The notes under the pieces: model-generated
What the model was told of the DNA's origin: nothing
Seen by the model: only the letters and a program-made list of their open reading frames with translations
Databases searched by the model: none
Shown: positions 3,127 to 14,227 of the stretch, one piece after another
Numbering within the stretch: the first letter of the stretch is position 1
Layout of the letters: each line of letters begins with the position of its first letter
Program-made: the position numbers and the translations under genes
Source of the DNA: Acidobacteriota bacterium
Lineage (GTDB): Bacteria > Acidobacteriota > UBA4820 > DSQY01
NCBI GenBank assembly: GCA_049967655.1
Contig: JBMFSH010000053.1
Coordinates: 1 to 14,227 of the forward strand
Reading direction: 5' to 3'
Length of the DNA: 14,227 bases

Positions 3127-4752
3127 ATGCAGAAGGTCGTGCTCAAGCCGTTCTTCGTGGGGGAGGCGGAGCAGATTCCCCTGGGGTTGCCGCGCCGGGT
3201 CGAATCACTTTGTCCGGAGTGTCGGCGGGTTATCAGCGGTGAACTCCTCGTGCGCGACGGTCGGGTCATCATGCAGAAAAGCTGCCCGCTCCATGGCTCC
3301 TTCGAAGAGGTCGTGGCGGGCAACGCCAACGTATTCGCTCACGTAGAGCGGTACGCTGTGGATGGCTCGGCCAAGCTTCAGAATACGCCCGTAGAGAAAG
3401 TGGGCATCTGCCCTACGGACTGCGGCCTCTGCCAGGGTCATCTCTCCAGTGCCAGCATGACCATCCTCGATTTAACCAACCGGTGTAACCTACGATGCCC
3501 CTATTGCTTCGCCAATGCGAACGTACAGCCCTACGTCTACGAACCCACTCTGGAGCAGATCCGCACCATGATGGACCGGGCCCTCGCCATAAGGCCCAAG
3601 CGCATGCAGGCGATCCAGTTCTCAGGCGGCGAGCCGACGCTCTCTCCGCATTTCTTGGATGCCTGCCGGTTGGCCAAGGAACGGGGCATCAAGATGATCC
3701 AGGCGGCCACCAACGGCATCCGCTTCGCGCAGGAGCCCGGCTTTGCCCAAAAGGCCGCCGAGGCCGGACTGAACGCCGCCTATCTGCAATTTGATGGGGT
3801 GAGCGACGATATTTATGAGATCACCAGGGGTGTCAAGGGCCTCTGGCCGCTCAAGCTCCAAGCCATCGAAGCGTTTCGGCGGGCCGGCATACGGGTGACC
3901 CTCGTGCCGACCGTGATCAAAGGAGTCAACGACCACCAGGTGGGGGATATCCTCCGGTTCGCTATCCGGAATCTTGACGCGATCGTCGGGGTGGCACCGC
4001 AACCCGTGTCCTTCACGGGGCGCGTGGATGAAGCCGCCAGGGTGGCGCAACGATATACATCGAGCGATCTAGCCGTGGATATCGAACGGCAGACGGGGCT
4101 TCTAGTCGCGGAGCGGGATTTTTTCCCCTTCTCCATCACGGCACTCTTCGGTCGGATCGTGGACAACGTCCTGGGCGAGGACGCCAATGGATTCCTCCCC
4201 ATGGTGTGCAATTCCCATCCGGATTGCGGTGTCTCCGCCTACCTGCTGGTCAATCAAGACACGGGTGTGAGCGTCCCCGTGAACGAGCTCTTCGACATCG
4301 ACAGCACCCTAAGACTCATTCAGGAACTGGGGGTCAAGAGCGCCGAGCACCCCTCTCGCCTCTACTCCACGGCTCAGTTTTTCTCAATCCTCCTGAAGAC
4401 CTTCCGGCCGGAACGGGCACCCGAGGGACTGAACATCGTCCAACTGGCCAAGACGATCGACGCCATTTCCGGCAAGCGCATCATGGGTATCGCTAAAAGG
4501 AGCCGCTACCCGTGGCGGTTGCTCCTGATCGCTTCGATGCACTTCATGGATGCCTATAATTTCCAGGTGGATCGGGTTAAACGATGCACCATCCACTACT
4601 CCGCTCCCGACGGCCGCATCTACCCCTTCTGCACCTACAACTCGGGCATGGTATTTCGGACAGGCGTAGAAGAGGCCTTCAGCGTGCCCAAGGAGGAGTG
4701 GTTGAAGAGCCGGGGCGGAAGGTACGTGACGGAAGGGTTCGTGGGGGAGTAG
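3127..4752 (+). CDS. tes: Radical SAM enzyme of the tetraether lipid synthase (Tes / GDGT-MAS, MJ0619) family, 541 aa
   Basis: AAGGAG RBS 8 nt before ATG 3127. Motifs in family order: SLCPEC...KSCPLHG (rubredoxin-like), CPTDCGLCQGH (N-terminal auxiliary cluster), DLTNRCNLRCPYCFANA (SAM cluster), IQFSGGEPT, ATNGI, YLQFDG, LVPTVIKGVND, QPVSFTGR, HPDCG, MHFMDAYNF, RCTIHY, DGRIYPFCTYN. Family assignment is strong; actual activity is inferred. Confidence 0.8.
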   Translation: MQKVVLKPFFVGEAEQIPLGLPRRVESLCPECRRVISGELLVRDGRVIMQKSCPLHGSFEEVVAGNANVFAHVERYAVDGSAKLQNTPVEKVGICPTDCGLCQGHLSSASMTILDLTNRCNLRCPYCFANANVQPYVYEPTLEQIRTMMDRALAIRPKRMQAIQFSGGEPTLSPHFLDACRLAKERGIKMIQAATNGIRFAQEPGFAQKAAEAGLNAAYLQFDGVSDDIYEITRGVKGLWPLKLQAIEAFRRAGIRVTLVPTVIKGVNDHQVGDILRFAIRNLDAIVGVAPQPVSFTGRVDEAARVAQRYTSSDLAVDIERQTGLLVAERDFFPFSITALFGRIVDNVLGEDANGFLPMVCNSHPDCGVSAYLLVNQDTGVSVPVNELFDIDSTLRLIQELGVKSAEHPSRLYSTAQFFSILLKTFRPERAPEGLNIVQLAKTIDAISGKRIMGIAKRSRYPWRLLLIASMHFMDAYNFQVDRVKRCTIHYSAPDGRIYPFCTYNSGMVFRTGVEEAFSVPKEEWLKSRGGRYVTEGFVGE

Positions 4753-4754
4753 CG

Positions 4755-4775
4755 GGGGACAGGGGACAAGGGACA
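4755..4775 (+). repeat. Three tandem 7-bp units (GGGGACA GGGGACA AGGGACA) directly after the tes stop
   Basis: Read directly at 4755-4761, 4762-4768 and 4769-4775. Confidence 0.6.
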
Positions 4776-4954: not shown

Positions 4955-5326
4955 ATGCTTCCCACTTACCTGCCCATTCTGATCATGATCGTGGTGGCCG
5001 CCGCCATGGCTGCCGGGCTCATGCTCGGTTCCTGGCTGCTGGGCAAGGTCCGGGGCTCCCGAACGGAGCTCATGCCCTATGAGTGCGGTCTGGACCCCAT
5101 GGACGAGCCCTTCAAGCGAGTGTCGGTGCGCTACTACGTCGTGGCGCTGCTCTTCCTGCTCTTCGACGTGGAGACGCTGTTCATGTTCCCGGTGGCCGCG
5201 GTCTTCCGCGACAAGATCCGCATGGGCTGGGGCCTCTTCGTCTACGGGGAGCTCCTGCTCTTCATGGCGATCCTCTTCATCGGGTACGTGTACGTTTGGA
5301 AGAAAGGGGCACTCCGATGGGAGTAA
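4955..5326 (+). CDS. nuoA: NADH-quinone oxidoreductase subunit A
   Basis: [20 protein letters not shown] and [10 protein letters not shown]; three hydrophobic segments. AGGGGG RBS favours ATG 4955 over GTG 4949. Confidence 0.96.
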
Positions 5327-5991
5327 AAACCCTCGATCAGCCGGACCAGGAACTGGACCGGCAGACCCGTGAAGACCTCCAGATGGTCAAAGGCGGGGTC
5401 ATCTTCGGGTCCCTTTCCAAGCTCGTGGACATGGCCCGGAAGAACAGCCTGTGGCCCATGCCTTTCGGCCTGAGCTGCTGCGCCATCGAGATGATGGCCA
5501 TGGTGGCCAGCCGGTACGACCTGGCCCGCTTCGGCGCCGAGGCCATGCGCTTCACCCCCCGCCAGTGCGACCTCATGATCGTGGCGGGCACCCTCACCAA
5601 GAAGATGGCCTACGCGGCCAAGCGCATCTACGACCAGATGCCCGAGCCCAAGTGGGTCATTGCCATGGGCGTCTGCACTACCACGGGCGGCATGTTCAAT
5701 GCCTACTCGGTGGTGCAGGGCATCGACCACATCGTCCCCGTGGACGTCTACGTGCCCGGCTGCCCGCCCAGGCCCGAGGCGGTGATCTACGCGGTGATGA
5801 AGATCCAGGACCAGGTCATGAAAGAGAAGTGGGCCCCGCTGGGCAAGCGCTCGCACCACGGGCACTACCGCGGACGGGACCCCAAGTACGGAGCGCTTCC
5901 GCTGCTGGACACGGGCGTCAAGGTGGAGGTCAAAGGCTATCCAGAGGAGCCCGGCTCTCCCACGTGGAGGAAGGGCTACTATACCGGTTGA
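5317..5991 (+). CDS. nuoB: NADH-quinone oxidoreductase subunit B (N2 cluster)
   Basis: [39 protein letters not shown] and [18 protein letters not shown] 5317 overlaps the end of nuoA. Confidence 0.96.
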
Positions 5992-6091
5992 AGGGGCGGA
6001 TCGGCGGCGGTCCAGCACGGACGAGGCGAATCCGGGGGAGCAAGTTAGCCGTGCCCGAAATCGGGCCGAGCACCGAGGCGCAGAGGCAGCG

Positions 6092-6574
6092 ATGGCGGAC
6101 GTGATCCAGGCGGTCCAATCGAAGTTTCCCGGAGCGATCCTCGAGATCGTGGAGTACCAGGGCGAGCGCACCCTCGTGGTGCAGCCGGGACGGGTCAAGG
6201 CCGTGCTCGGCCACCTCAAGCAGGCCGAGGGATTCAACTTCCTCGCCGACATCAGCAGCGCTCACTGGCCCGAGGAGGGGCGCATCGACGTGGTCTACAT
6301 CGTGCGGAGCCTCAAGAGCCGGGAGCAGCTGCGCATCAGGACGCCCCTGCCCATCGAGGACCCCGCCGTCGAGACGGTCTGTGACCTCTGGGGCACCGCC
6401 GACTGGCTGGAGCGGGAGGTCTACGACCTCATGGGGGTGCAGTTCACGGGCCACCCCGACCTTCGCAGGATCATGCTGCCGGAGGATTTCGAGGGGCATC
6501 CCCTCCGCAAGGAATATCCCATGGAGGGCGACGACGAGTGGCGGAACTACCTCCCCCCCGAAAAAAGGGAATAG
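6092..6574 (+). CDS. nuoC: NADH-quinone oxidoreductase subunit C
   Basis: ADWLEREVYDLMGVQFTGHPDLRRIMLPEDFEGHPLRKEYP signature. Confidence 0.96.
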   Translation: MADVIQAVQSKFPGAILEIVEYQGERTLVVQPGRVKAVLGHLKQAEGFNFLADISSAHWPEEGRIDVVYIVRSLKSREQLRIRTPLPIEDPAVETVCDLWGTADWLEREVYDLMGVQFTGHPDLRRIMLPEDFEGHPLRKEYPMEGDDEWRNYLPPEKRE

Positions 6575-6697
6575 ATCACAGAGGCACGGAGACGCAGAGG
6601 AAGAATCAGGAGGGTGTGGCGGGTGACCCCCTTAGGCGTGAAATACCTGTTTTTCAATATGGAGGCTTTTTTCTCTGTGCCTCTGTGTCTCTGTGGT
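6575..6697. repeat. Hairpin element 1 (CACAGAGR subfamily) between nuoC and nuoD
   Basis: Left arm CACAGAGG CACGGAGA CGCAGAGG (6577-6600) pairs with right arm TCTCTGTG CCTCTGTG TCTCTGTG (6672-6695): 19 Watson-Crick, 4 G-U and 1 mismatch in 24 positions, extendable by several pairs on both sides. Confidence 0.85.
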
Positions 6698-6720
6698 GAA
6701 TCTCGCGTGGGGACCTTAGC

Positions 6721-7935
6721 ATGACCGAGATGAACCGGGAACGGCTCGACCTCAACACGGACGTCATCACCGTCAACATGGGTCCGCAACATCCCTCCAC
6801 CCACGGCGTGCTCCGCGTCATCCTGAAGCTGGACGGGGAGGTAGTGCTTTCGGCCGTGCCCGACGTGGGCTATCTGCACCGGGGGATCGAGAAGATCGCC
6901 GAGAACAAGACCCTCCACCAGGTGATCCCCTACACCGACCGGATGGACTACCTCTCCCCCATGTCCAACAACATCGGCCTGGCCATGGCGGTGGAGAAGC
7001 TCATCGGCTTCCAGATCACGGAACGCTGCCGGGTGATGCGCGTGATCTGCATGGAGCTGGCGCGCCTGTCGAGCCACCTCCTCTGGCTGGCCACCGACGC
7101 GCTGGACGTCGGCGCGGGCACGGTCTACTTCTACGCCTTCACGGAGCGCGAGAAGATCTACGACATATTCGAAAAGATGAGCGGGGCGCGCTTCACCGTC
7201 TCGTACGGGCGCATCGGCGGCCTGGCCAGGGATTGGCCCGAGGGGCTGGAACGCGAGATCGACACCTACGTGGCTCAGGCGCACAAGACCATCGACGAGT
7301 GCGACAAGCTCCTGACCCGAAACAAGATCTGGATCGACCGCAACCAGGACGTGGGTGTGATCTCGGCGGAGAAGGCCATCGACATGGGCCTCACGGGGCC
7401 GCCGCTTCGGGCCTGCGGCGTGGAGTGGGACCTCAGGAAAGCCTACCCCTACCTGGGTTACGAACGATACGACTTCGAGATTCCGGTGGGCGAGCACGGC
7501 GACTGCTACGACAGGTATCTCGTCCGGATGGAGGAGATGCGCCAGAGCATCCGGATCATCCAACAGGCGGTCAAGGAGATGGATCGCTCCATTCCGCTCT
7601 TCCCAGAGGATCCTGAATCGCGCAAGGTGTTTCTGCCGCCCAAGGATCGGGTCCTCACGAAGATGGAGGAGTTGATCCACCAGTTCATCGTGGCCACGGA
7701 GGGTCCCAAGACCCCAAAGGGCAAGGAGATCTACTTCGCCATCGAGGCCCCCAAGGGGGAGCTGGGCTTTTACCTGGTGGGATCGGGTACGAACGTGGCC
7801 CATCGATGCCACTTTCGCGCCCCCTCCTTCATCAACCTTCAGGCCCTGCCCATCCTGCTCAAGGGGGCCATGGTGGCGGACTGCGTGGCCACCATTGCCT
7901 CGCTGGATCCCGTCATGGGCGAGTGCGACCGGTGA
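6721..7935 (+). CDS. nuoD: NADH-quinone oxidoreductase subunit D
   Basis: NMGPQHPSTHGVLR, GYLHRGIEK, DRMDY, EAPKGELG and DPVMGECDR. Confidence 0.97.
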   Translation: MTEMNRERLDLNTDVITVNMGPQHPSTHGVLRVILKLDGEVVLSAVPDVGYLHRGIEKIAENKTLHQVIPYTDRMDYLSPMSNNIGLAMAVEKLIGFQITERCRVMRVICMELARLSSHLLWLATDALDVGAGTVYFYAFTEREKIYDIFEKMSGARFTVSYGRIGGLARDWPEGLEREIDTYVAQAHKTIDECDKLLTRNKIWIDRNQDVGVISAEKAIDMGLTGPPLRACGVEWDLRKAYPYLGYERYDFEIPVGEHGDCYDRYLVRMEEMRQSIRIIQQAVKEMDRSIPLFPEDPESRKVFLPPKDRVLTKMEELIHQFIVATEGPKTPKGKEIYFAIEAPKGELGFYLVGSGTNVAHRCHFRAPSFINLQALPILLKGAMVADCVATIASLDPVMGECDR

Positions 7936-7978
7936 GGGCCGAGAGGGGACGGCGGCGGATTTCTTCTGAGGTGACAGG

Positions 7979-8470
7979 GTGAGCGAGCAGGGCGTGGCGG
8001 AGCTGATCAAGAACCCCGAGTTTCTGGCCAAGGTGGACCGCCTCGTGAAGTCCTATCCGAGGCCCCAGACGGCGCTCATCCCCATCCTCCACCTGTGCCA
8101 GGCCGAGCTGAGGCACGTGCCCGTCGAGTTCCAAGCCTTCATCGCCGAAAGGCTCGGCCTGACCCCGGCCCACGTGAGGGGCGTGGTCACCTTCTACGAG
8201 ATGTTCTCCGAGGAGCCCCACGGCCGGTATCTCTTGCAGGTCTGCAAGACGCTGCCCTGCATGCTGAGGGGATCGGAGGCTCTGCTAGAGCACCTCCAGA
8301 ACAAGCTCGGTATCAAGCCGGGCGGAACCACCCAGGACGGACGCTTCTCCCTCATCACGGTGGAGTGCCTGGCCTGTTGCGACGGGGGGCCCTCGCTCAT
8401 GGTCAACGAAGTGCTGCACAAGAATGTCAGCCTGGCCGACGCGGACCGCATCCTCTCGGAGCTGGAGTGA
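7979..8470 (+). CDS. nuoE: NADH-quinone oxidoreductase subunit E (2Fe-2S)
   Basis: GVVTFYEMF, VCKTLPCMLRG and VECLACCD. GTG start preceded by GAGGTG. Confidence 0.95.
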   Translation: MSEQGVAELIKNPEFLAKVDRLVKSYPRPQTALIPILHLCQAELRHVPVEFQAFIAERLGLTPAHVRGVVTFYEMFSEEPHGRYLLQVCKTLPCMLRGSEALLEHLQNKLGIKPGGTTQDGRFSLITVECLACCDGGPSLMVNEVLHKNVSLADADRILSELE

Positions 8471-8475
8471 GAGAA

Positions 8476-8558
8476 ATGAACCACCAAGACACCAAGGCAC
8501 CCATGATCTTGTTTTCCCGCAGAGATCACTTCTTGGTGTCTTTGTGCCGTAGTGGTGG
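8476..8558. repeat. Hairpin element 2 (CACCAAGR subfamily) between nuoE and nuoF
   Basis: Left arm CACCAAGA CACCAAGG CACCCATG; right arm CTTGGTGT CTTTGTGC CGTAGTGG. AAGACACCAAG (8486-8496) is the exact reverse complement of 8532-8542. Colinear over 83 nt with element 3. Confidence 0.8.
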
Positions 8559-8582
8559 GTTTTTACCCACAGAGGGCGCGAG

Positions 8583-9878
8583 ATGACGCAAGTGCTGAAG
8601 CTGCTGACGAGGAATGTGGGGAAGCCCAACTCGACTCACGTCGATGCCTACATGGGCTCGGGGGGCTACGAGCCCCTCATGACCGTGCTACACAAATGGA
8701 CGCCCGAGCAGGCGCTGAACGAGGTGAAGGCGGCCAATCTGAAGGGCCGAGGCGGCGCGGGCTTCCCGGCGGGCCTGAAGTGGTCCTTCCTTCCCAAGGG
8801 CAAGGAGGTCCTCAAGTATCTGGTCTGCAACGCCGACGAGAGCGAGCCGGGAACCTTCAAGGACCGCCTGCTCATCGAGAACGACCCCCATTCCATACTG
8901 GAAGGGATCATCATCGCCGGATGGGCCACGCAGGCGGCCGGTTGCTTCTTTTACATCCGGGGCGAGATGCCCGCCGGAGCGCGGATCTTCCAGAAGGCGG
9001 TGGACCAGGCCTACGCCAAGGGCTTCCTCGGCAAGAACATCCTGGGTTCGGGCTTCAACTTCGACGTCTGGGTTTCGAGGGGGGCGGGCGCCTACATCTG
9101 CGGCGAGGAGACGGCCCTCATGGATTCGCTGGAGGGCAAGCGGGGCCAGCCCAGGCTCAAGCCGCCGTTCCCGGCGGGCTACGGTGTCTACGGCGTGCCG
9201 ACCAACATCAACAACGTGGAGTCCTATGCCAACGTCCCGCTCATCATCAAGAACGGAGCCAGCTGGTACACGGCGATCGGCAGTCCCAGCGCCCCGGGTA
9301 CGAGGCTCTTCGGCATCTCTGGCCACGTGAAGCGGCCTGGCGTCTTCGAGCTCCCCTCTGGCGTGACCCTAAGGGAGCTCATCTACGAGCACGCCGGGGG
9401 GATCCTGGGCGACCGTCCCCTCAAGGCCGTTATCCCGGGCGGCTCTTCCGTGCCGGTCCTGCGCGCCGATCAGATCGACGTGACCATGGACCCCGACGGC
9501 CTCAAGACCGTAGGGACCATGCTGGGCTCGGCCGGCGTCATCGTCATGAACGACAGCGTCTGCATGGTCAAGGCCCTGCTGAATCTGATGGAGTTCTACG
9601 CGCGCGAGTCCTGCGGGCAGTGCACCCCCTGCCGGGAGGGAACGCACTGGCTTGAACTAATCGTGAGGCGCCTGGAGGAGGGCGGCGGGAGGCCGTCGGA
9701 CTGCGACCTCATCCTGGACGTGGCAGGCAACATCATGGGCCGCACCATCTGCCCCCTCGGGGACGCCGCCGCCATGCCGGCCATCTCCTTCGTGCAGCAG
9801 TTCCGGGAGGAGTTCGAAGCGCACGGCCGGGCGGGCCGCTGTCCCATGCGCGACGTCCGCATGACCGCGGCGATTTAG
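8583..9878 (+). CDS. nuoF: NADH-quinone oxidoreductase subunit F (FMN/NADH-binding)
   Basis: LKGRGGAGFPAGLKW, CNADESEPGTFKDR, GAGAYICGEETAL and ESCGQCTPCREG...ICPLGD. Confidence 0.97.
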   Translation: MTQVLKLLTRNVGKPNSTHVDAYMGSGGYEPLMTVLHKWTPEQALNEVKAANLKGRGGAGFPAGLKWSFLPKGKEVLKYLVCNADESEPGTFKDRLLIENDPHSILEGIIIAGWATQAAGCFFYIRGEMPAGARIFQKAVDQAYAKGFLGKNILGSGFNFDVWVSRGAGAYICGEETALMDSLEGKRGQPRLKPPFPAGYGVYGVPTNINNVESYANVPLIIKNGASWYTAIGSPSAPGTRLFGISGHVKRPGVFELPSGVTLRELIYEHAGGILGDRPLKAVIPGGSSVPVLRADQIDVTMDPDGLKTVGTMLGSAGVIVMNDSVCMVKALLNLMEFYARESCGQCTPCREGTHWLELIVRRLEEGGGRPSDCDLILDVAGNIMGRTICPLGDAAAMPAISFVQQFREEFEAHGRAGRCPMRDVRMTAAI

Positions 9879-9891
9879 GAGGTAAGAGAGC

Positions 9892-9974
9892 ATGAACCAC
9901 CCAGACACCAAGACACCAAGAGCTTCTTTTGTCATGCAGAATCGTTTCTTCGTGCCCTTGTGCCTTGGTGGTGG
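9892..9974. repeat. Hairpin element 3 (CACCAAGR subfamily) between nuoF and nuoG
   Basis: Left arm ACCACCCAGACACCAAGACACCAAG (9896-9920) against right arm CTTCGTGCCCTTGTGCCTTGGTGGT (9948-9972): 19 of 25 positions complementary. Begins ATGAACCAC and ends GTGGTGG, exactly as element 2. Confidence 0.8.
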
Positions 9975-9992
9975 ATCTTTCTTGAGGTTTGC

Positions 9993-11639
9993 ATGCCGCT
10001 GATCCGGATTGACGACCAGGAAATCGAGGCGCCCCAGGGCGAGACCATCCTCCGGGTGGCCCTCAAGCACGGGATCGCCATCCCCTACTACTGCTACCAC
10101 CCCGCCCTCTCCATCGTGGGCCAGTGCCGTATGTGCCTCGTCGAGGTGAAGGGCGCGCCCAAGCCGCTCACGGCCTGCTCGACCACCATAACGTCCCTAC
10201 CGCCGGACAAGAAGATCGAGGGCAAGTACGACATGGTGGTCTCCACGAAGAGCGAGACGGCCAGGAAGGCCCAGCGCGGCGTGCTCGAATTTCTCCTCCT
10301 GAACCACCCCCTGGACTGCCCCATCTGCGATCAGGCGGGGGAATGCCAACTGCAGGAGTACTCCTACACCTTCGGCGATCCGGCCAGCCGCCTGGAGTTC
10401 GAGAAGGTCCACGCCCCCAAGCGCGTGGACATCGGGCCGCACGTGGTCTTCGACGTGGAGCGCTGCATCAAGTGCACCCGCTGCATCCGCTTCTGCCAGG
10501 AGATCAGCAAGACCGGCGAGCTAACCCTCTCGGAGCGCGGCGTCTACACCCGCGTGGATACCTTCCCCGGCCGTAAGCTCGACAACCCCTACTCCGTCTG
10601 CACGGTGGACATCTGTCCCGTGGGTGCGCTGACGAGCCGGGAGTTCCGCTTCAAGGAGCGGGTCTGGTTCCTGAAGTCGGTGAACTCCGTCTGCCAGGAG
10701 TGCGCGAGGGGCTGTTCCGTCCGCGTGGATGCTTACAAGGGCGAGGTCCTGCGCCTGGTGCCCAGGGACAACCCGCAGGTAAACGGGCCGTGGATGTGCG
10801 ATTACGGGCGCCTCATCACGGAGCGCATGAAGGGGCTCGATCTGGTCGCCAGGCCCCTGCTCCGCTCGGGCTCGGCCTGGCAGGGCTATGAGTGGAAGGA
10901 ATTCGGGGCCGCGTTGGTGGAGAGGATGGCGGCCTCCCCGGCCGCCAAGTCCGATTCGTGGGCCCTGGTCTTCTCGGGCCGCCTCTCGCTGGAGGAGATG
11001 GCCGGCGCGCAGGCCCTCTCCCAGGCCTTTTTCAATCGCTCGGTGGGTTCGGCGCCCGATGTGGCCTGGGGGGAGGACGACGAACTCCTCATCCGCAAGG
11101 AGCGGCGGCCCAACCTCACGGGAGCCCGGCTGATGGGCATCCCCGTGGGGGAGCAGAACGTCCCCCTCTCGGGCCTGTTCGCCGGGAAAAAGGCGGCCCT
11201 GATCCTCCGCGAGGACGTGGTAGGAGACGCCGAGGGGGCGGAGAAGGCCGCCATCCAGAAGGCGCTGGGCGCCATGGACCTGGTGATCGTGGCCGACTCG
11301 TCCTTCACCGAGACCGCGCGGTTGGCTCACGTTTTCATCCCGCTCGCGGGCTGGCACGAGATGGAAGGGGTCATGGTGAACTTCCTGGGCGTCGCCCAGA
11401 AGACCGCCCGAGCGGTGGTTCCCCCGAGGGACCGCCGGCCCTTCTACGAGGTGGCGAGTCTCTGGCTCACGGCGGCCGGGCACGACGCCCCCGAGCCCAC
11501 CTTCCTGAGCTGGCACGCCAGGGCCAAGGAGTCGGTGCCGGGGCTGGCGGGAACCTCCATCAAGGACCTGCTCCCGAACGGGCTGCAGATCCTCGACGCC
11601 CCGGCCAAGGAGAAGGCCAAGAGGGGCGAGGGGGCATGA
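9993..11639 (+). CDS. nuoG: NADH-quinone oxidoreductase subunit G (short form, 548 aa)
   Basis: CYHPAL...GQCRMC...AC (N1b), NHPLDCPICDQAGEC (N5), RCIKCTRC...CPVGAL (N4) and CQECARGC...C (N7-type). GAGG RBS before ATG 9993. Confidence 0.92.
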   Translation: MPLIRIDDQEIEAPQGETILRVALKHGIAIPYYCYHPALSIVGQCRMCLVEVKGAPKPLTACSTTITSLPPDKKIEGKYDMVVSTKSETARKAQRGVLEFLLLNHPLDCPICDQAGECQLQEYSYTFGDPASRLEFEKVHAPKRVDIGPHVVFDVERCIKCTRCIRFCQEISKTGELTLSERGVYTRVDTFPGRKLDNPYSVCTVDICPVGALTSREFRFKERVWFLKSVNSVCQECARGCSVRVDAYKGEVLRLVPRDNPQVNGPWMCDYGRLITERMKGLDLVARPLLRSGSAWQGYEWKEFGAALVERMAASPAAKSDSWALVFSGRLSLEEMAGAQALSQAFFNRSVGSAPDVAWGEDDELLIRKERRPNLTGARLMGIPVGEQNVPLSGLFAGKKAALILREDVVGDAEGAEKAAIQKALGAMDLVIVADSSFTETARLAHVFIPLAGWHEMEGVMVNFLGVAQKTARAVVPPRDRRPFYEVASLWLTAAGHDAPEPTFLSWHARAKESVPGLAGTSIKDLLPNGLQILDAPAKEKAKRGEGA

Positions 11640-11685
11640 CCAGCATGAAGCCGAACAGCGAGCCGATCCAAGGGGAGGGGAGCAA

Positions 11686-12732
11686 GTGAACGCCTACTGG
11701 CCCATCGTGGTGCCCGCCCTCATCAAGATCGTCGTGATCCTAGGGATCGTCCTGACGGGCGTGGCCTACAGCACGCTCGCCGAGAGAAAGGTCTCCGCCT
11801 GGATGCAGGACCGGCGCGGGCCCAACCGGGTGGGCCCCTTCGGGCTCCTCCAGCCGGTGGCCGACGGGATGAAGTTCTTCTTCAAGGAGGACATCACGCC
11901 GAGGGAGGCCTACCGGCCCCTCTACCTGTTGGCGCCGTTCCTGACGCTCTTTCCGGCCCTCATCACCTTCGCCGTGATCCCCTTCGGGACCCAGATCAGC
12001 GTGGGCGGGCAGACCTACCCCCTCATCATCGCGCCCGGCATGGACGTGGGGGTCATCTTCCTCCTCGCCGTGTCCTCCATCGGGGTCTACGGCATCCTGC
12101 TGGCGGGCTGGTCCAGCGGCAACAAGTACTCCCTCATGGGCGGGCTAAGGAGCGCGAGCCAGGTCATCTCCTATGAGCTGGGTATCGCCCTGGCGGTGAT
12201 GAGCGTGGTGCTCTGGACGGGCAGTTTCGATTTCCGGCGCATCGTGGAGGATCAAACCGGGTGGGGCCACTTCTGGTTCGTCGGCCCGCAGTTCCTGGCC
12301 TTCATCGTCTTCACGGTGGCCGTCTTTGCCGAGACCAACCGCCTGCCCTTCGACCTTCCGGAGGGCGAGAGCGAACTCGTGGCCGGCTACCACACCGAGT
12401 ATTCGGGCCTCCGTTTCGCCATGTTCTTCATGGGAGAGTACGCGAACATGATCACGGCTTCGGCCTTCGTGGTGCTCCTCTTCCTGGGCGGGTGGAATCT
12501 CCCCTTCGTCAACTACGCTTGGTTCGGGCCGCTGTGGGGAGGTCTGCTCTCGGCGGTGGTCTTCTTCGCCAAGGTGGCAGTGCTGCTCTTCGTTTTTATC
12601 TGGGTGCGCTGGACGCTGCCCCGCTTCCGCTATGACCAGCTCATGTCGCTAGGGTGGAAGCGGCTCTTCCCGCTCGCCTTATTGAACCTCGTGCTCATCT
12701 CGACCCTGCTGGTACTGAGAGGCCGCCCATGA
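11686..12732 (+). CDS. nuoH: NADH-quinone oxidoreductase subunit H
   Basis: ERKVSAWMQDRRGPNRVGPFGLLQPVADGMK, AETNRLPFDLPEGESELVAGYHTEYSG and RFRYDQLMSLGWK. Confidence 0.97.
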   Translation: MNAYWPIVVPALIKIVVILGIVLTGVAYSTLAERKVSAWMQDRRGPNRVGPFGLLQPVADGMKFFFKEDITPREAYRPLYLLAPFLTLFPALITFAVIPFGTQISVGGQTYPLIIAPGMDVGVIFLLAVSSIGVYGILLAGWSSGNKYSLMGGLRSASQVISYELGIALAVMSVVLWTGSFDFRRIVEDQTGWGHFWFVGPQFLAFIVFTVAVFAETNRLPFDLPEGESELVAGYHTEYSGLRFAMFFMGEYANMITASAFVVLLFLGGWNLPFVNYAWFGPLWGGLLSAVVFFAKVAVLLFVFIWVRWTLPRFRYDQLMSLGWKRLFPLALLNLVLISTLLVLRGRP

Positions 12733-13226
12733 AAGTGACCAGGCCCGAACTGAGCTGGTGGGAGCGCACCTACTTCCCCGCCATCCTCAAGGGGATGAAG
12801 CTCACCTTCAGCCACATCTTCCGTAAGCGGGTGACCCTCCAGTACCCCGAGGAGCGCTGGACCCTGCCGCCCGGCTACAGGGGTCAGCCCGTGCTCCTCA
12901 CGGGGCTGGACGGGCACGAGAAGTGCACCTCCTGCAAGCTCTGCCAGTTCATCTGCCCGCCCGAGGCGATCCGCATCGTGGCGGGCGAGACGGAGCTGGC
13001 GAAGGAGAAATTCCCCAAGGAGTTCGACATCGACATGGGGCTCTGCATCTTCTGCGGTTACTGCCAGGAGGTCTGCCCCGTGGAGGCCATCTGGCTCAAG
13101 GATGCCTACGAGCTGGCGGACTACGACCGCACCAACCTGATCTTCGACAAGGAGAAGCTGCTGGCCATCGGCCGCAAGCCTCCGTACCTCCCCGGCAGGG
13201 AGAAGCCTTTGGAGGAGGGAAGATGA
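12729..13226 (+). CDS. nuoI: NADH-quinone oxidoreductase subunit I (2x 4Fe-4S)
   Basis: VTLQYPEE, CTSCKLCQFICP and CIFCGYCQEVCPVEAI. ATGA overlap with the nuoH stop. Confidence 0.96.
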   Translation: MKVTRPELSWWERTYFPAILKGMKLTFSHIFRKRVTLQYPEERWTLPPGYRGQPVLLTGLDGHEKCTSCKLCQFICPPEAIRIVAGETELAKEKFPKEFDIDMGLCIFCGYCQEVCPVEAIWLKDAYELADYDRTNLIFDKEKLLAIGRKPPYLPGREKPLEEGR

Positions 13227-13750
13227 TAGCCTCTGTCGTCTTCTTCGCGGTGGCCTTTCTAGCCTTTCTGGGGGCGCTCGCGCTGGTTTTCCACCGGCAT
13301 CCCATGGTGGCCGGCCTGGGCATGGCGCTCTCCACGCTCTCCATCGGCGTGCTCTACGTGTTGCTGAGGGTTCCGTTCCTGGGGCTGTTCCAGGCCATCA
13401 TTTACGCGGGCGCGGTCATGGTGATCGTGCTCTACATCGTCATGGCCCTAGGCCAGGAGGAGACCGGCCCGAGGGTCGGTGCGGTCCAGACGGGGTTGAC
13501 CTACGTGGCTGCCGCCCTGTTGCTGCTGCAATTCTACTGGGCCATCGTCCGATCGGGGGCGGGGCCGTTCCCGGAGGGAGCCGCACTGCCGCCCGTGACC
13601 GCGGGGGGGACGAGCTACCCCTTCGGCACCATTCAAGCTTTCGGGAGTCTGCTCGTGAGCCACTACTCCGTCCCCTTCGAGGTGGCCTCCCTCCTGCTGG
13701 TGGGCGCCATGGTCGGGGCGGTGATCCTCTCCCGCAGGAGCTGGTCATGA
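13223..13750 (+). CDS. nuoJ: NADH-quinone oxidoreductase subunit J
   Basis: Multiple TM helices; QAIIYAGAVMV and PFEVASLLLVGAMVGAVIL. GGAGG RBS and ATGA overlap with nuoI. Confidence 0.94.
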   Translation: MIASVVFFAVAFLAFLGALALVFHRHPMVAGLGMALSTLSIGVLYVLLRVPFLGLFQAIIYAGAVMVIVLYIVMALGQEETGPRVGAVQTGLTYVAAALLLLQFYWAIVRSGAGPFPEGAALPPVTAGGTSYPFGTIQAFGSLLVSHYSVPFEVASLLLVGAMVGAVILSRRSWS

Positions 13751-14052
13751 CCATTACCCTCGGCCACTACCTCATCTTGGCGGTGTTTCTTTTCGCGGTG
13801 GGCGTCATCGGCGCCCTGACGCGCAAGAGCGCCATCATCGTCTTCCTCTCTATCGAGCTCATGTTGAACGCGGCCAACGTGGTCTTCATGGCCATGGGGC
13901 GCTATTTCGGCCAGCTCGATGGGGCCGTTTTTGTGCTCTTCATCCTCGCCGTGAGCGCCGCCGAAGCGGCCGTGGGGGTGGCCATCGTGGTGGCCTTCAT
14001 CCGCCGGCGGGGAACGACCGACATCGATGCCGCCAACCTCATGAAATGGTAA
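13747..14052 (+). CDS. nuoK: NADH-quinone oxidoreductase subunit K
   Basis: LSIELMLNAAN and AVSAAEAAVGVAI. ATGA overlap with nuoJ. Confidence 0.96.
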   Translation: MTITLGHYLILAVFLFAVGVIGALTRKSAIIVFLSIELMLNAANVVFMAMGRYFGQLDGAVFVLFILAVSAAEAAVGVAIVVAFIRRRGTTDIDAANLMKW

Positions 14053-14060
14053 TGGGGTCT

Positions 14061-14205
14061 AACCACAGAGGCACAGAGACACAGAGAGTCAGAGGAAGAG
14101 GGGATTTCATGGCTTGCAATTGGGACAAGAGAGAGGGGAGGATCGGAGCAAAAGGCTTCCTTGAGCCAGAAGGCCTTTTCTCTGGGCCTCGCTGTCTCTG
14201 TGGTT
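14061..14205. repeat. Hairpin element 4 (CACAGAGR subfamily) after nuoK
   Basis: Left arm AACCACAGAGGCACAGAGACACAGAGAG (14061-14088) against right arm TTCTCTGGGCCTCGCTGTCTCTGTGGTT (14178-14205): 22 Watson-Crick, 2 G-U and 4 mismatches; the outer 10 bp are perfect. Arms closely resemble element 1; the loop differs. Confidence 0.85.
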
Positions 14206-14224
14206 TGCTGCTTTGGGGGTTGCC

Positions 14225-14227
14225 ATG
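14225..14227 (+). CDS. Probable start codon of nuoL (truncated by the window edge)
   Basis: ATG preceded by GGGGGT. The identity rests only on canonical nuo gene order. Confidence 0.45.

Follow-up and report, generated by a model that had tools for sequence, protein, structure and literature searches.

Connected reading frames across repeat-filled gaps in the complex I operon of an Acidobacteriota bacterium

In a complex I operon of an Acidobacteriota bacterium, seven intergenic gaps each carry a short open reading frame (ORF), which raises the question whether ribosomes that finish one nuo gene are passed on to the next or whether such frames arise by chance. The operon, nuoA-nuoK (4955..14052, plus strand, as are all mini-ORFs and repeat shells given below), lies in the window analyzed here, namely the entire 14,227-nucleotide (nt) contig C53 (JBMFSH010000053.1, assembly GCA_049967655.1); its source genome is labelled G000 and the congeners G001, G002 and G003. 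Gene identities were assigned by NCBIfam matches. We find that four of the gaps hold the shells, devoid of any gene, of a cassette with a turnover at gene junctions, and that in relatives long gaps (80-300 nt) are bridged two to three times above chance, yet only about half of them are. We consider it likely that selection favours connected frames through which ribosomes are handed across the inserts, a relay that we predict for the E-F, F-G and K-L gaps and the 3' half of C-D only. The principle of relay ORFs is already known; what is new here is the phase statistic across replaced inserts.

Phase of the frames between nuo genes

A preliminary description of the window had proposed a mini-ORF in every gap of the operon that is not closed by a direct gene overlap. 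Indeed, all seven ORFs translate without internal stops at the positions and lengths given there, and the remaining junctions overlap directly, by 10 nt (A-B) or 4 nt (H-I, I-J and J-K). The E-F bridge (8467..8586) begins with GTG 8467 on the nuoE stop or with the in-frame ATG 8476 (36 aa from the ATG) and ends in an ATGA overlap with nuoF. The F-G bridge (9892..10002, 36 aa) starts with an ATG 13 nt past the nuoF stop, is preceded by AGGAGG at 9877, and ends 10 nt inside nuoG. The K-L bridge (14052..14227, 58 aa), described as open to the window end, starts in a TAATG overlap with nuoK and closes on an ATGA overlap with nuoL, the last base of its stop lying on contig C99; the final 77 nt of the window overlap the start of C99 (minus strand), on which nuoL, starting at window position 14225, continues as a NuoL-like translation when read by eye. 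In the C-D gap, a half bridge (6614..6724) runs from GTG 6614 or 6623, after AGGAGG 6608-6613, to an ATGA overlap with nuoD. The three other mini-ORFs are those of B-C (5988..6104, 38 aa, TTG start on the nuoB stop, stop 13 nt inside nuoC), D-E (7932..7982, 16 aa, GTGA at either end) and G-H (11636..11689, 17 aa, ATGA and GTGA overlaps). The stop/start linkage attributed to the gaps thus holds at both ends in only four of the seven, D-E, E-F (via GTG 8467), G-H and K-L, whereas the C-D frame is unlinked at its 5' end and the B-C and F-G frames end inside the next gene. Neither a sigma-70-like promoter (strict scan) nor a terminator-like site was detected in the seven gaps, and the window gave no Rfam family match.

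We then asked how often such frames are expected by chance. When six gaps were shuffled at fixed length with their dinucleotides preserved, a loose bridge arose in 0.56-0.91 of the shuffles per gap, and the G-H frame was open in 0.79-0.93 of same-length shuffles. Because shuffling destroys the stop-poor purine/pyrimidine layout of the gaps, nulls of this kind overstate significance. As main null we therefore used a frame-shift permutation, in which 1 or 2 nt are deleted in the middle third of the gap (or also inserted, in the comparative tests), so that ends, arms and composition are kept and only the phase is altered; on chimeric gaps it proved near-calibrated (0.057 vs 0.050). Under the loose rule, seven of seven window gaps were bridged as compared to 5.0 expected (p 0.053), and the full count, which had been put forward as the signal, is thus weak when taken alone. 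Under a both-ends rule, which admits an ORF if its start lies within -11 to +15 nt of the upstream stop and its end within -12 to +15 nt of the downstream start, six of seven gaps were bridged vs 3.0 expected (p 0.008). Both p-values are optimistic because the window was picked for its pattern, and the test was therefore moved to other data.

For this purpose, 36 fetched nuo loci were compared with the window. Gaps were counted as similarity clusters (62% identity per junction), giving fractional counts, and p-values are approximate, kin not being independent and no tree being used. Seven loci of other families were excluded, as were two rows with frameshifted flanks (B-C and F-G), one J-K row, one row with an N-run and one gap of G002 that contains a gene; four nuoL starts were set by hand. 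In the first nuo operon, 15.1 of 28 clusters of 80-300 nt were bridged, compared to 4.8 in the other phases, and the excess persisted when the window clusters were dropped (11.3/23 vs 4.1, p 0.00025). A second nuo operon was fetched from 20 of 26 relatives, the rule having been fixed beforehand. In this set, which includes the source genome's own copy with a K-L right end common to the window, 9.7 of 17 clusters of 80-300 nt were bridged vs 4.2 expected (p 0.007), and a tighter rule, chosen after seeing the second-operon gaps, gave similar results. Nine of its ten K-L gaps of 72-175 nt carry frames that end at +4. When both operons were pooled and the window clusters dropped, the excess held in eight of ten cross-junction clusterings (p 0.0001-0.037); it also persisted with ATG starts only and was present separately in genera g1, g3 and g4. 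In genus g4, E-F inserts of 138, 159, 129, 90 and 85 nt, which form four clusters and use different repeat words, all end on the same stop at +8, and four of the five ORFs start at -4. The relay proposed for the window is accordingly supported by two data sets that played no part in finding it, for long, hairpin-filled gaps, though not for every gap.

The same bias was seen outside the nuo operons. Among 55 gaps of the source genome of 80-200 nt that have NTGA at both ends, the -4 frame was open in 18 of the 23 cases in which it meets the next start, as compared to 9 of the 32 cases in which it misses it (Fisher p 0.0003); shuffles of these gaps gave 8.3 and 9.4 open frames, respectively. Of the other co-directional gaps of 80-200 nt in this genome, 65 of 378 were bridged vs 30.7 under the frame-shift null. 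In the ribosomal protein operon, taken from 20 of 27 relatives plus the source genome with five junctions dropped and few long gaps available, 2.2 of 8 clusters were bridged vs 1.1 expected (p 0.06).

Cassette shells and the history of the junctions

The content of four of the gaps had escaped the preliminary description. The C-D, E-F, F-G and K-L gaps are gene-less shells bounded by inverted arms of tandem 8-nt units, with the purine-rich arm first, 0-17 nt past the upstream stop, followed by its inverted copy, whose end lies 20-26 nt ahead of the next start. They measure 77-143 nt and use two arm types. CACAGAGR arms bound the C-D shell (6575..6697; arms 6575-6599 and 6673-6697; -59.4 kcal/mol, z -2.81) and the K-L shell (14062..14204; arms 14062-14086 and 14180-14204; -62.7 kcal/mol, z -0.96), and CACCAAGR arms bound the E-F shell (8480..8556; arms 8480-8504 and 8532-8556; z -3.14) and the F-G shell (9896..9972; arms 9896-9920 and 9948-9972; z -0.57). 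Octad arms are almost free of T on one side and of A on the other. The source genome holds 126 octad-arm and 34 heptamer-arm matches, 149 of these 160 being intergenic by our own gene calls. The B-C, D-E and G-H gaps are unstructured by fold z-score; in B-C no hairpin is predicted (z +0.59), and positions 6075-6088 resemble one degenerate octad arm by short BLAST matches. By eye, no tetranucleotide direct repeat is apparent around the four window shells.

The origin of these shells is illustrated by the congeners. The E-F gap of G002 is 515 nt long and contains an intact GxxExxY gene (TIGR04256, 152.9 bits, cut-off 35) between CACAGAGR-type arms, and the E-F gap of G003 equals that of G002 minus 394 nt (24-nt common prefix, 95 of 97 suffix matches). 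In view of one filled and one deleted form, we take the C-D, E-F, F-G and K-L gaps to contain a cassette's shells without its gene, the cassette itself being subject to turnover at junctions. The E-F shell of the window differs from the filled G002 cassette in its arm type (CACCAAGR vs CACAGAGR-type). The GxxExxY family PF13366 has matches in 16 of 25 genomes of the family, whereas the source genome gave no PF13366 match. In the filled G002 gap, the cargo starts 7 nt past the nuoE stop, and a 29-aa ORF begins at the stop of the cargo, crosses the right arm and closes in an ATGA on nuoF.

Several observations concern related inserts. At least four of six PF05635 (four-helix-bundle) loci of the source genome also have purine and pyrimidine tandem arms, made of other repeat words; in two PF05635 loci the frame of the cargo extends across the left arm, from beside the upstream stop, and a third has an internal TAG. 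In a further relative (G019), a GxxExxY gene seems, by eye, to be interrupted by a GC-rich palindromic stretch inserted in its coding region. In C-D (6575-6724), the frame that reaches the nuoD ATGA is open back to the nuoC TAG, such that amber readthrough would bridge the gap; the C-D gap of G003 is 2 nt shorter, which would break this frame. Read by eye, the 283-nt K-L gap of G002 seems to hold a window-like shell followed by a degraded duplicate of the 5' end of nuoL, another pyrimidine arm and, lastly, a new start for nuoL. In relative G022 the first nuo operon is present twice, and one copy has a seemingly frameshifted nuoB. Between the copies, the C-D shells are unequal by roughly one octad, and the gap is bridged in the copy with the frameshifted nuoB and unbridged in the other.

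Comparison with other genera indicates what the junctions looked like before insertion. D-E mostly overlaps by 4 nt there and G-H lies at -4 to -14; C-D overlaps by 4-20 nt in many relatives, and tight versions exist of E-F (-1 to 3 nt), F-G (3 to 18 nt) and K-L (14 to 31 nt). An insert that enters an NTGA overlap and spares both genes would leave NTGA at either end without selection. Given that such ends come free, only the phase and the lack of stops are informative. G-H carries a genus-specific 46-nt spacer at the ancestral 4-nt overlap, and D-E is probably a chance case, in which an ancestral 4-nt overlap was pushed apart; the B-C mini-ORF is likewise probably due to chance. Taken together, the B-C, D-E and G-H mini-ORFs are indistinguishable from chance. 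Junctions that measure 14 nt or less in some relative were bridged in 21.7 of 37 clusters (8.2 expected), and those never below 27 nt in 4.2 of 15 (1.9 expected); with both groups in excess at similar ratios, the split by ancestral spacing does not by itself single out once-coupled junctions.

The surroundings of the operon contain features of separate interest. The source genome has two nuo operons, one comprising A-N with EFG and the other lacking EFG, and they meet at the single collapsed nuoL contig C99, to which two contigs join on the left and two on the right (C53 end, C7 start, C16 start and C52 end). This implies that the nuoL copies are near-identical, perhaps as a result of gene conversion, and the contigs of many relatives likewise end near K-L. 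Upstream of nuoA, positions 3127-4752 encode a radical SAM protein that, in a bacterial genome, scores above the NCBIfam cut-off for the tetraether lipid synthase Tes (484 vs 450 bits); it adjoins a B12-binding radical SAM-like gene (1531-2796). Directly past the stop of the Tes-like gene lies a lone heptamer purine arm (4756-4775) of the second repeat family.

A proposed hand-over of ribosomes and its alternatives

How could inserts and connected frames be related? Small cassettes, bounded by one arm rich in purines and one rich in pyrimidines, each made of short tandem units, are gained and lost between genes of this lineage, with or without a cargo such as GxxExxY, as the filled and empty forms of one gap show, and the relatives show that many nuo junctions were tightly coupled before insertion. 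At no cost, insertion would place an NTG that resembles a start on the upstream stop, and a TGA on the start downstream; octad arms being nearly stop-free, about one insert in three should fall in phase by luck. Where coupling matters, selection would then keep a stop-free frame from the upstream stop to the downstream start, the excess of such frames being observed and the selection being our interpretation. A ribosome may start anew on the mini-ORF and unfold the hairpin, and on terminating at the start of the next gene it may initiate once more; these steps are modelled on termination-reinitiation and its coupling to RNA unfolding, as reviewed in PMC12548453 (in the part available to us). 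The peptides themselves would be waste.

One alternative is that connected frames are an unselected by-product. Open frames would come easily from GC-rich DNA, from arms free of stops, from the NTGA inherited at the ends and from the old start of the cargo; the excess in phase would stem from common ancestry or from remnants of coding frames, and every nuo gene would have its own Shine-Dalgarno (SD) motif for initiation. We regard this as unlikely, although some of the observations fit it. In the source genome, loose bridges occur in 19 of 24 arm-bearing gaps of 101-200 nt (79%) and in 126 of 325 others (39%), and the 19 are matched by 18.1 after frame shift; arm-bearing gaps are rich in loose ORFs because octad arms are stop-poor, with 21 T in the 2350 nt of 94 arms and a stop triplet in 5-6 of them. 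Breaks in the congeners, an operon with none of its five shells bridged and the shells of other phyla, which showed no enrichment among the matches listed (see below), are in line with a by-product as well. On the other side, the frame-shift null retains arms, ends and composition, and the observed phase still runs two- to threefold ahead in both nuo sets and genome-wide; inserts of different repeat families converge on one stop, as in genus g4; and openness is restricted to the connected frame. This last point also bears on the idea that frames are kept only as ribosome cover on the mRNA, against Rho termination or RNase cleavage of the hairpin and without any hand-over, which we judge rather improbable. 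Cover would favour any frame open from the stop, but where the next start is missed, frames are open about as often as in shuffled gaps, which disfavours the avoidance of polarity invoked in the preliminary description. A frame that closes on the next start could, however, still keep the stretch of uncovered RNA as short as possible, long stems do fill the four gaps, the downstream genes retain SD-like motifs, and the hairpins found in miniature inverted-repeat transposable elements, called MITEs for short, can be RNase III substrates according to the accessible part of PMC10969869.

The mini-ORFs could also encode genuine small proteins of complex I, or leader peptides with a role in its regulation. 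A 130-nt K-L ORF is indeed kept at equal length in five genomes of two genera (59-89% identity), and the G-H ORF has a positive coding score (+0.24 per codon). However, the K-L family shows no codon-position bias, with 15, 19 and 19 variable columns by codon position and an amino-acid identity of 42-84%, and the six other window mini-ORFs score negative. None of the five window peptides tested had an NCBIfam match at E 1. Moreover, the frame in which an arm is read varies from bridge to bridge, and inserts are replaced by unrelated ones. None of the 54 tight bridges in the source genome scores as coding, and missed real genes as a source of bridges are ruled out by the coding score. These data show that the bridge peptides are without protein constraint, making a peptide function highly improbable.

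Having considered these alternatives, we return to the relay and to a series of observations that weigh against it. In the window, the F-G and K-L shells, unlike those of C-D and E-F, fold no better than shuffles, the C-D mini-ORF starts 39-48 nt past the nuoC stop, and the downstream genes keep SD-like motifs of their own. Conservation within the genus is mixed: F-G is bridged in four of four genomes, in G002 by way of a different shell, 178 nt long, whose arms are read in another frame, and the G-H ORF is kept in all four; by contrast, the B-C frame is open in three of four, with an in-frame stop in G001, the D-E gap is 1 nt longer (44 nt) in G002 and G003 with loss of its ATGA end, and C-D is bridged from the stop in none of the four. 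In addition, the E-F shell of G003 has no single-step bridge (a two-step path of 13 and 29 aa remains), and K-L of G002 is unbridged. Gaps of 28-79 nt in the first nuo operon show no excess (11.2/22 clusters vs 8.7, p 0.14). Given this result and the breaks in the congeners, translation of the mRNA almost without gaps, as initially envisaged, is unsupported. Across both operons, just 44 of 78 long gaps are bridged under a wider rule; I-J of the second operon is bridged in 3 of 16 cases; and genus g6 shows no excess (1.3/4 vs 0.8). When single linkage is applied at 0.55 or below, the set collapses and significance is lost (p 0.11-1.0), at thresholds (0.55 and 0.50) around the 0.54 identity that shuffled pairs reach. 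Elsewhere in the source genome, shell-bearing gaps are bridged in 6 of 20 cases vs 3.0 expected (p 0.07), gap length modulo 3 is flat genome-wide, and among the NTGA gaps it is weakly skewed (23/55, p 0.12). An operon of HD-domain, aconitase-family and citrate-lyase-like genes (contig C14, 51034-57094) carries an octad shell in five consecutive gaps, none of which is bridged, and the ribosomal L22-S3 junction is bridged in none of the four genus genomes. A relay 3' of the cargo is found in 5 of the 17 filled GxxExxY cassettes for which a downstream gene was called, out of 20 examined and with one extra call dropped as a wrong start. Finally, a scan of other phyla yielded at least 120 perfect-arm loci, of which 73 were co-directional by rough calls; of the 30 operon-like shells tested, with crude start calls, 6 were bridged vs 4.0 expected among the matches listed (p 0.18). 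Bridging as a general property of the cassette across phyla is thus unsupported.

Considering both sides, we still favour the relay in the long, hairpin-filled gaps. Many independent inserts at the same junctions amount to a natural experiment, in which a bias toward connected frames can be measured in the absence of protein constraint. The relay model is testable junction by junction: if it is true, K-L and E-F need the relay, and I-J of the second operon and L22-S3 do not. It offers a possible reason why an uncharacterised cassette found across phyla is tolerated in complex I operons, and it is a warning that ORFs of this kind are not small proteins. More tentatively, GxxExxY-type cassettes and their shells might be translation-transparent parasites, which colonise the coupled junctions of essential operons by virtue of stop-free arms and relay frames; throw-away ORFs, read by their phase, could in that case mark, in this lineage, the junctions that depend on hand-over.

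Relation to known systems

The closest precedent for a relay-type ORF within an operon is the mycobacterial interspersed repetitive unit (MIRU), reportedly described by Supply et al. in 1997. MIRUs are short intergenic repeats that occur in many copies within operons; their ORF shares bases with the genes on either side, and the proposed effect is that translation of the downstream gene is maintained (PMC12548453 and PMC3184786, in the parts available). The relay proposed here would work in a similar way; direct overlap with both neighbours is seen in four of the seven window gaps. MIRU units, as far as these sources go, are 40-100 bp long and have tetranucleotide direct repeats and a built-in ORF; the window shells are not MIRUs by size or family.

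As to the inserts themselves, the shells share their tandem-repeat inverted arms with the GxxExxY (TIGR04256, PF13366) and PF05635 cassettes, the filled GxxExxY form sitting at the orthologous E-F junction, and differ from it in that the window copies are empty. Our literature search, from which subscription papers were mostly out of reach, returned no paper describing a GxxExxY or four-helix cassette or relays across it. In Geobacter metallireducens, paired tandem heptamer or octamer repeats, with four to five 7-8-nt units on opposite strands at variable distance, are intergenic (PMC2700814); the consensus words quoted in its accessible text differ from ours and are read as regulator binding sites, and its supplements may hold the octad family. 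Paired tandem repeats of similar build with other consensus words are also given for Geobacter in the accessible part of PMC2996986. Chunjie, a MITE of Geobacter uraniireducens, is an inverted-repeat-bounded, gene-less insert inside an operon (PMC10969869). The window shells are similar to it in size and in having terminal inverted repeats.

A working analogy is provided by integrons, where a hairpin of the attC site between cistrons impedes ribosomes. A short ORF across this hairpin, and likewise ORF-11 at attI1, restores downstream translation by termination-reinitiation, the peptide sequence mattering little (PMC8876359, in the part available). The nuo bridges are alike in this working sense only, their arms being tandem octads and their host an essential chromosomal operon. 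In the portions of the reviews that we could consult, the survival of repeats in operons by relay ORFs rests on MIRUs and attC sites. Unlike MIRUs, the inserts described here come from several unrelated repeat families, vary in length, exist in a gene-carrying form and are bridged in about half of the cases. With families mixed and only about half of the gaps bridged, the connected frame seems to have been sieved separately at each junction, whereas in the MIRU it is built in.

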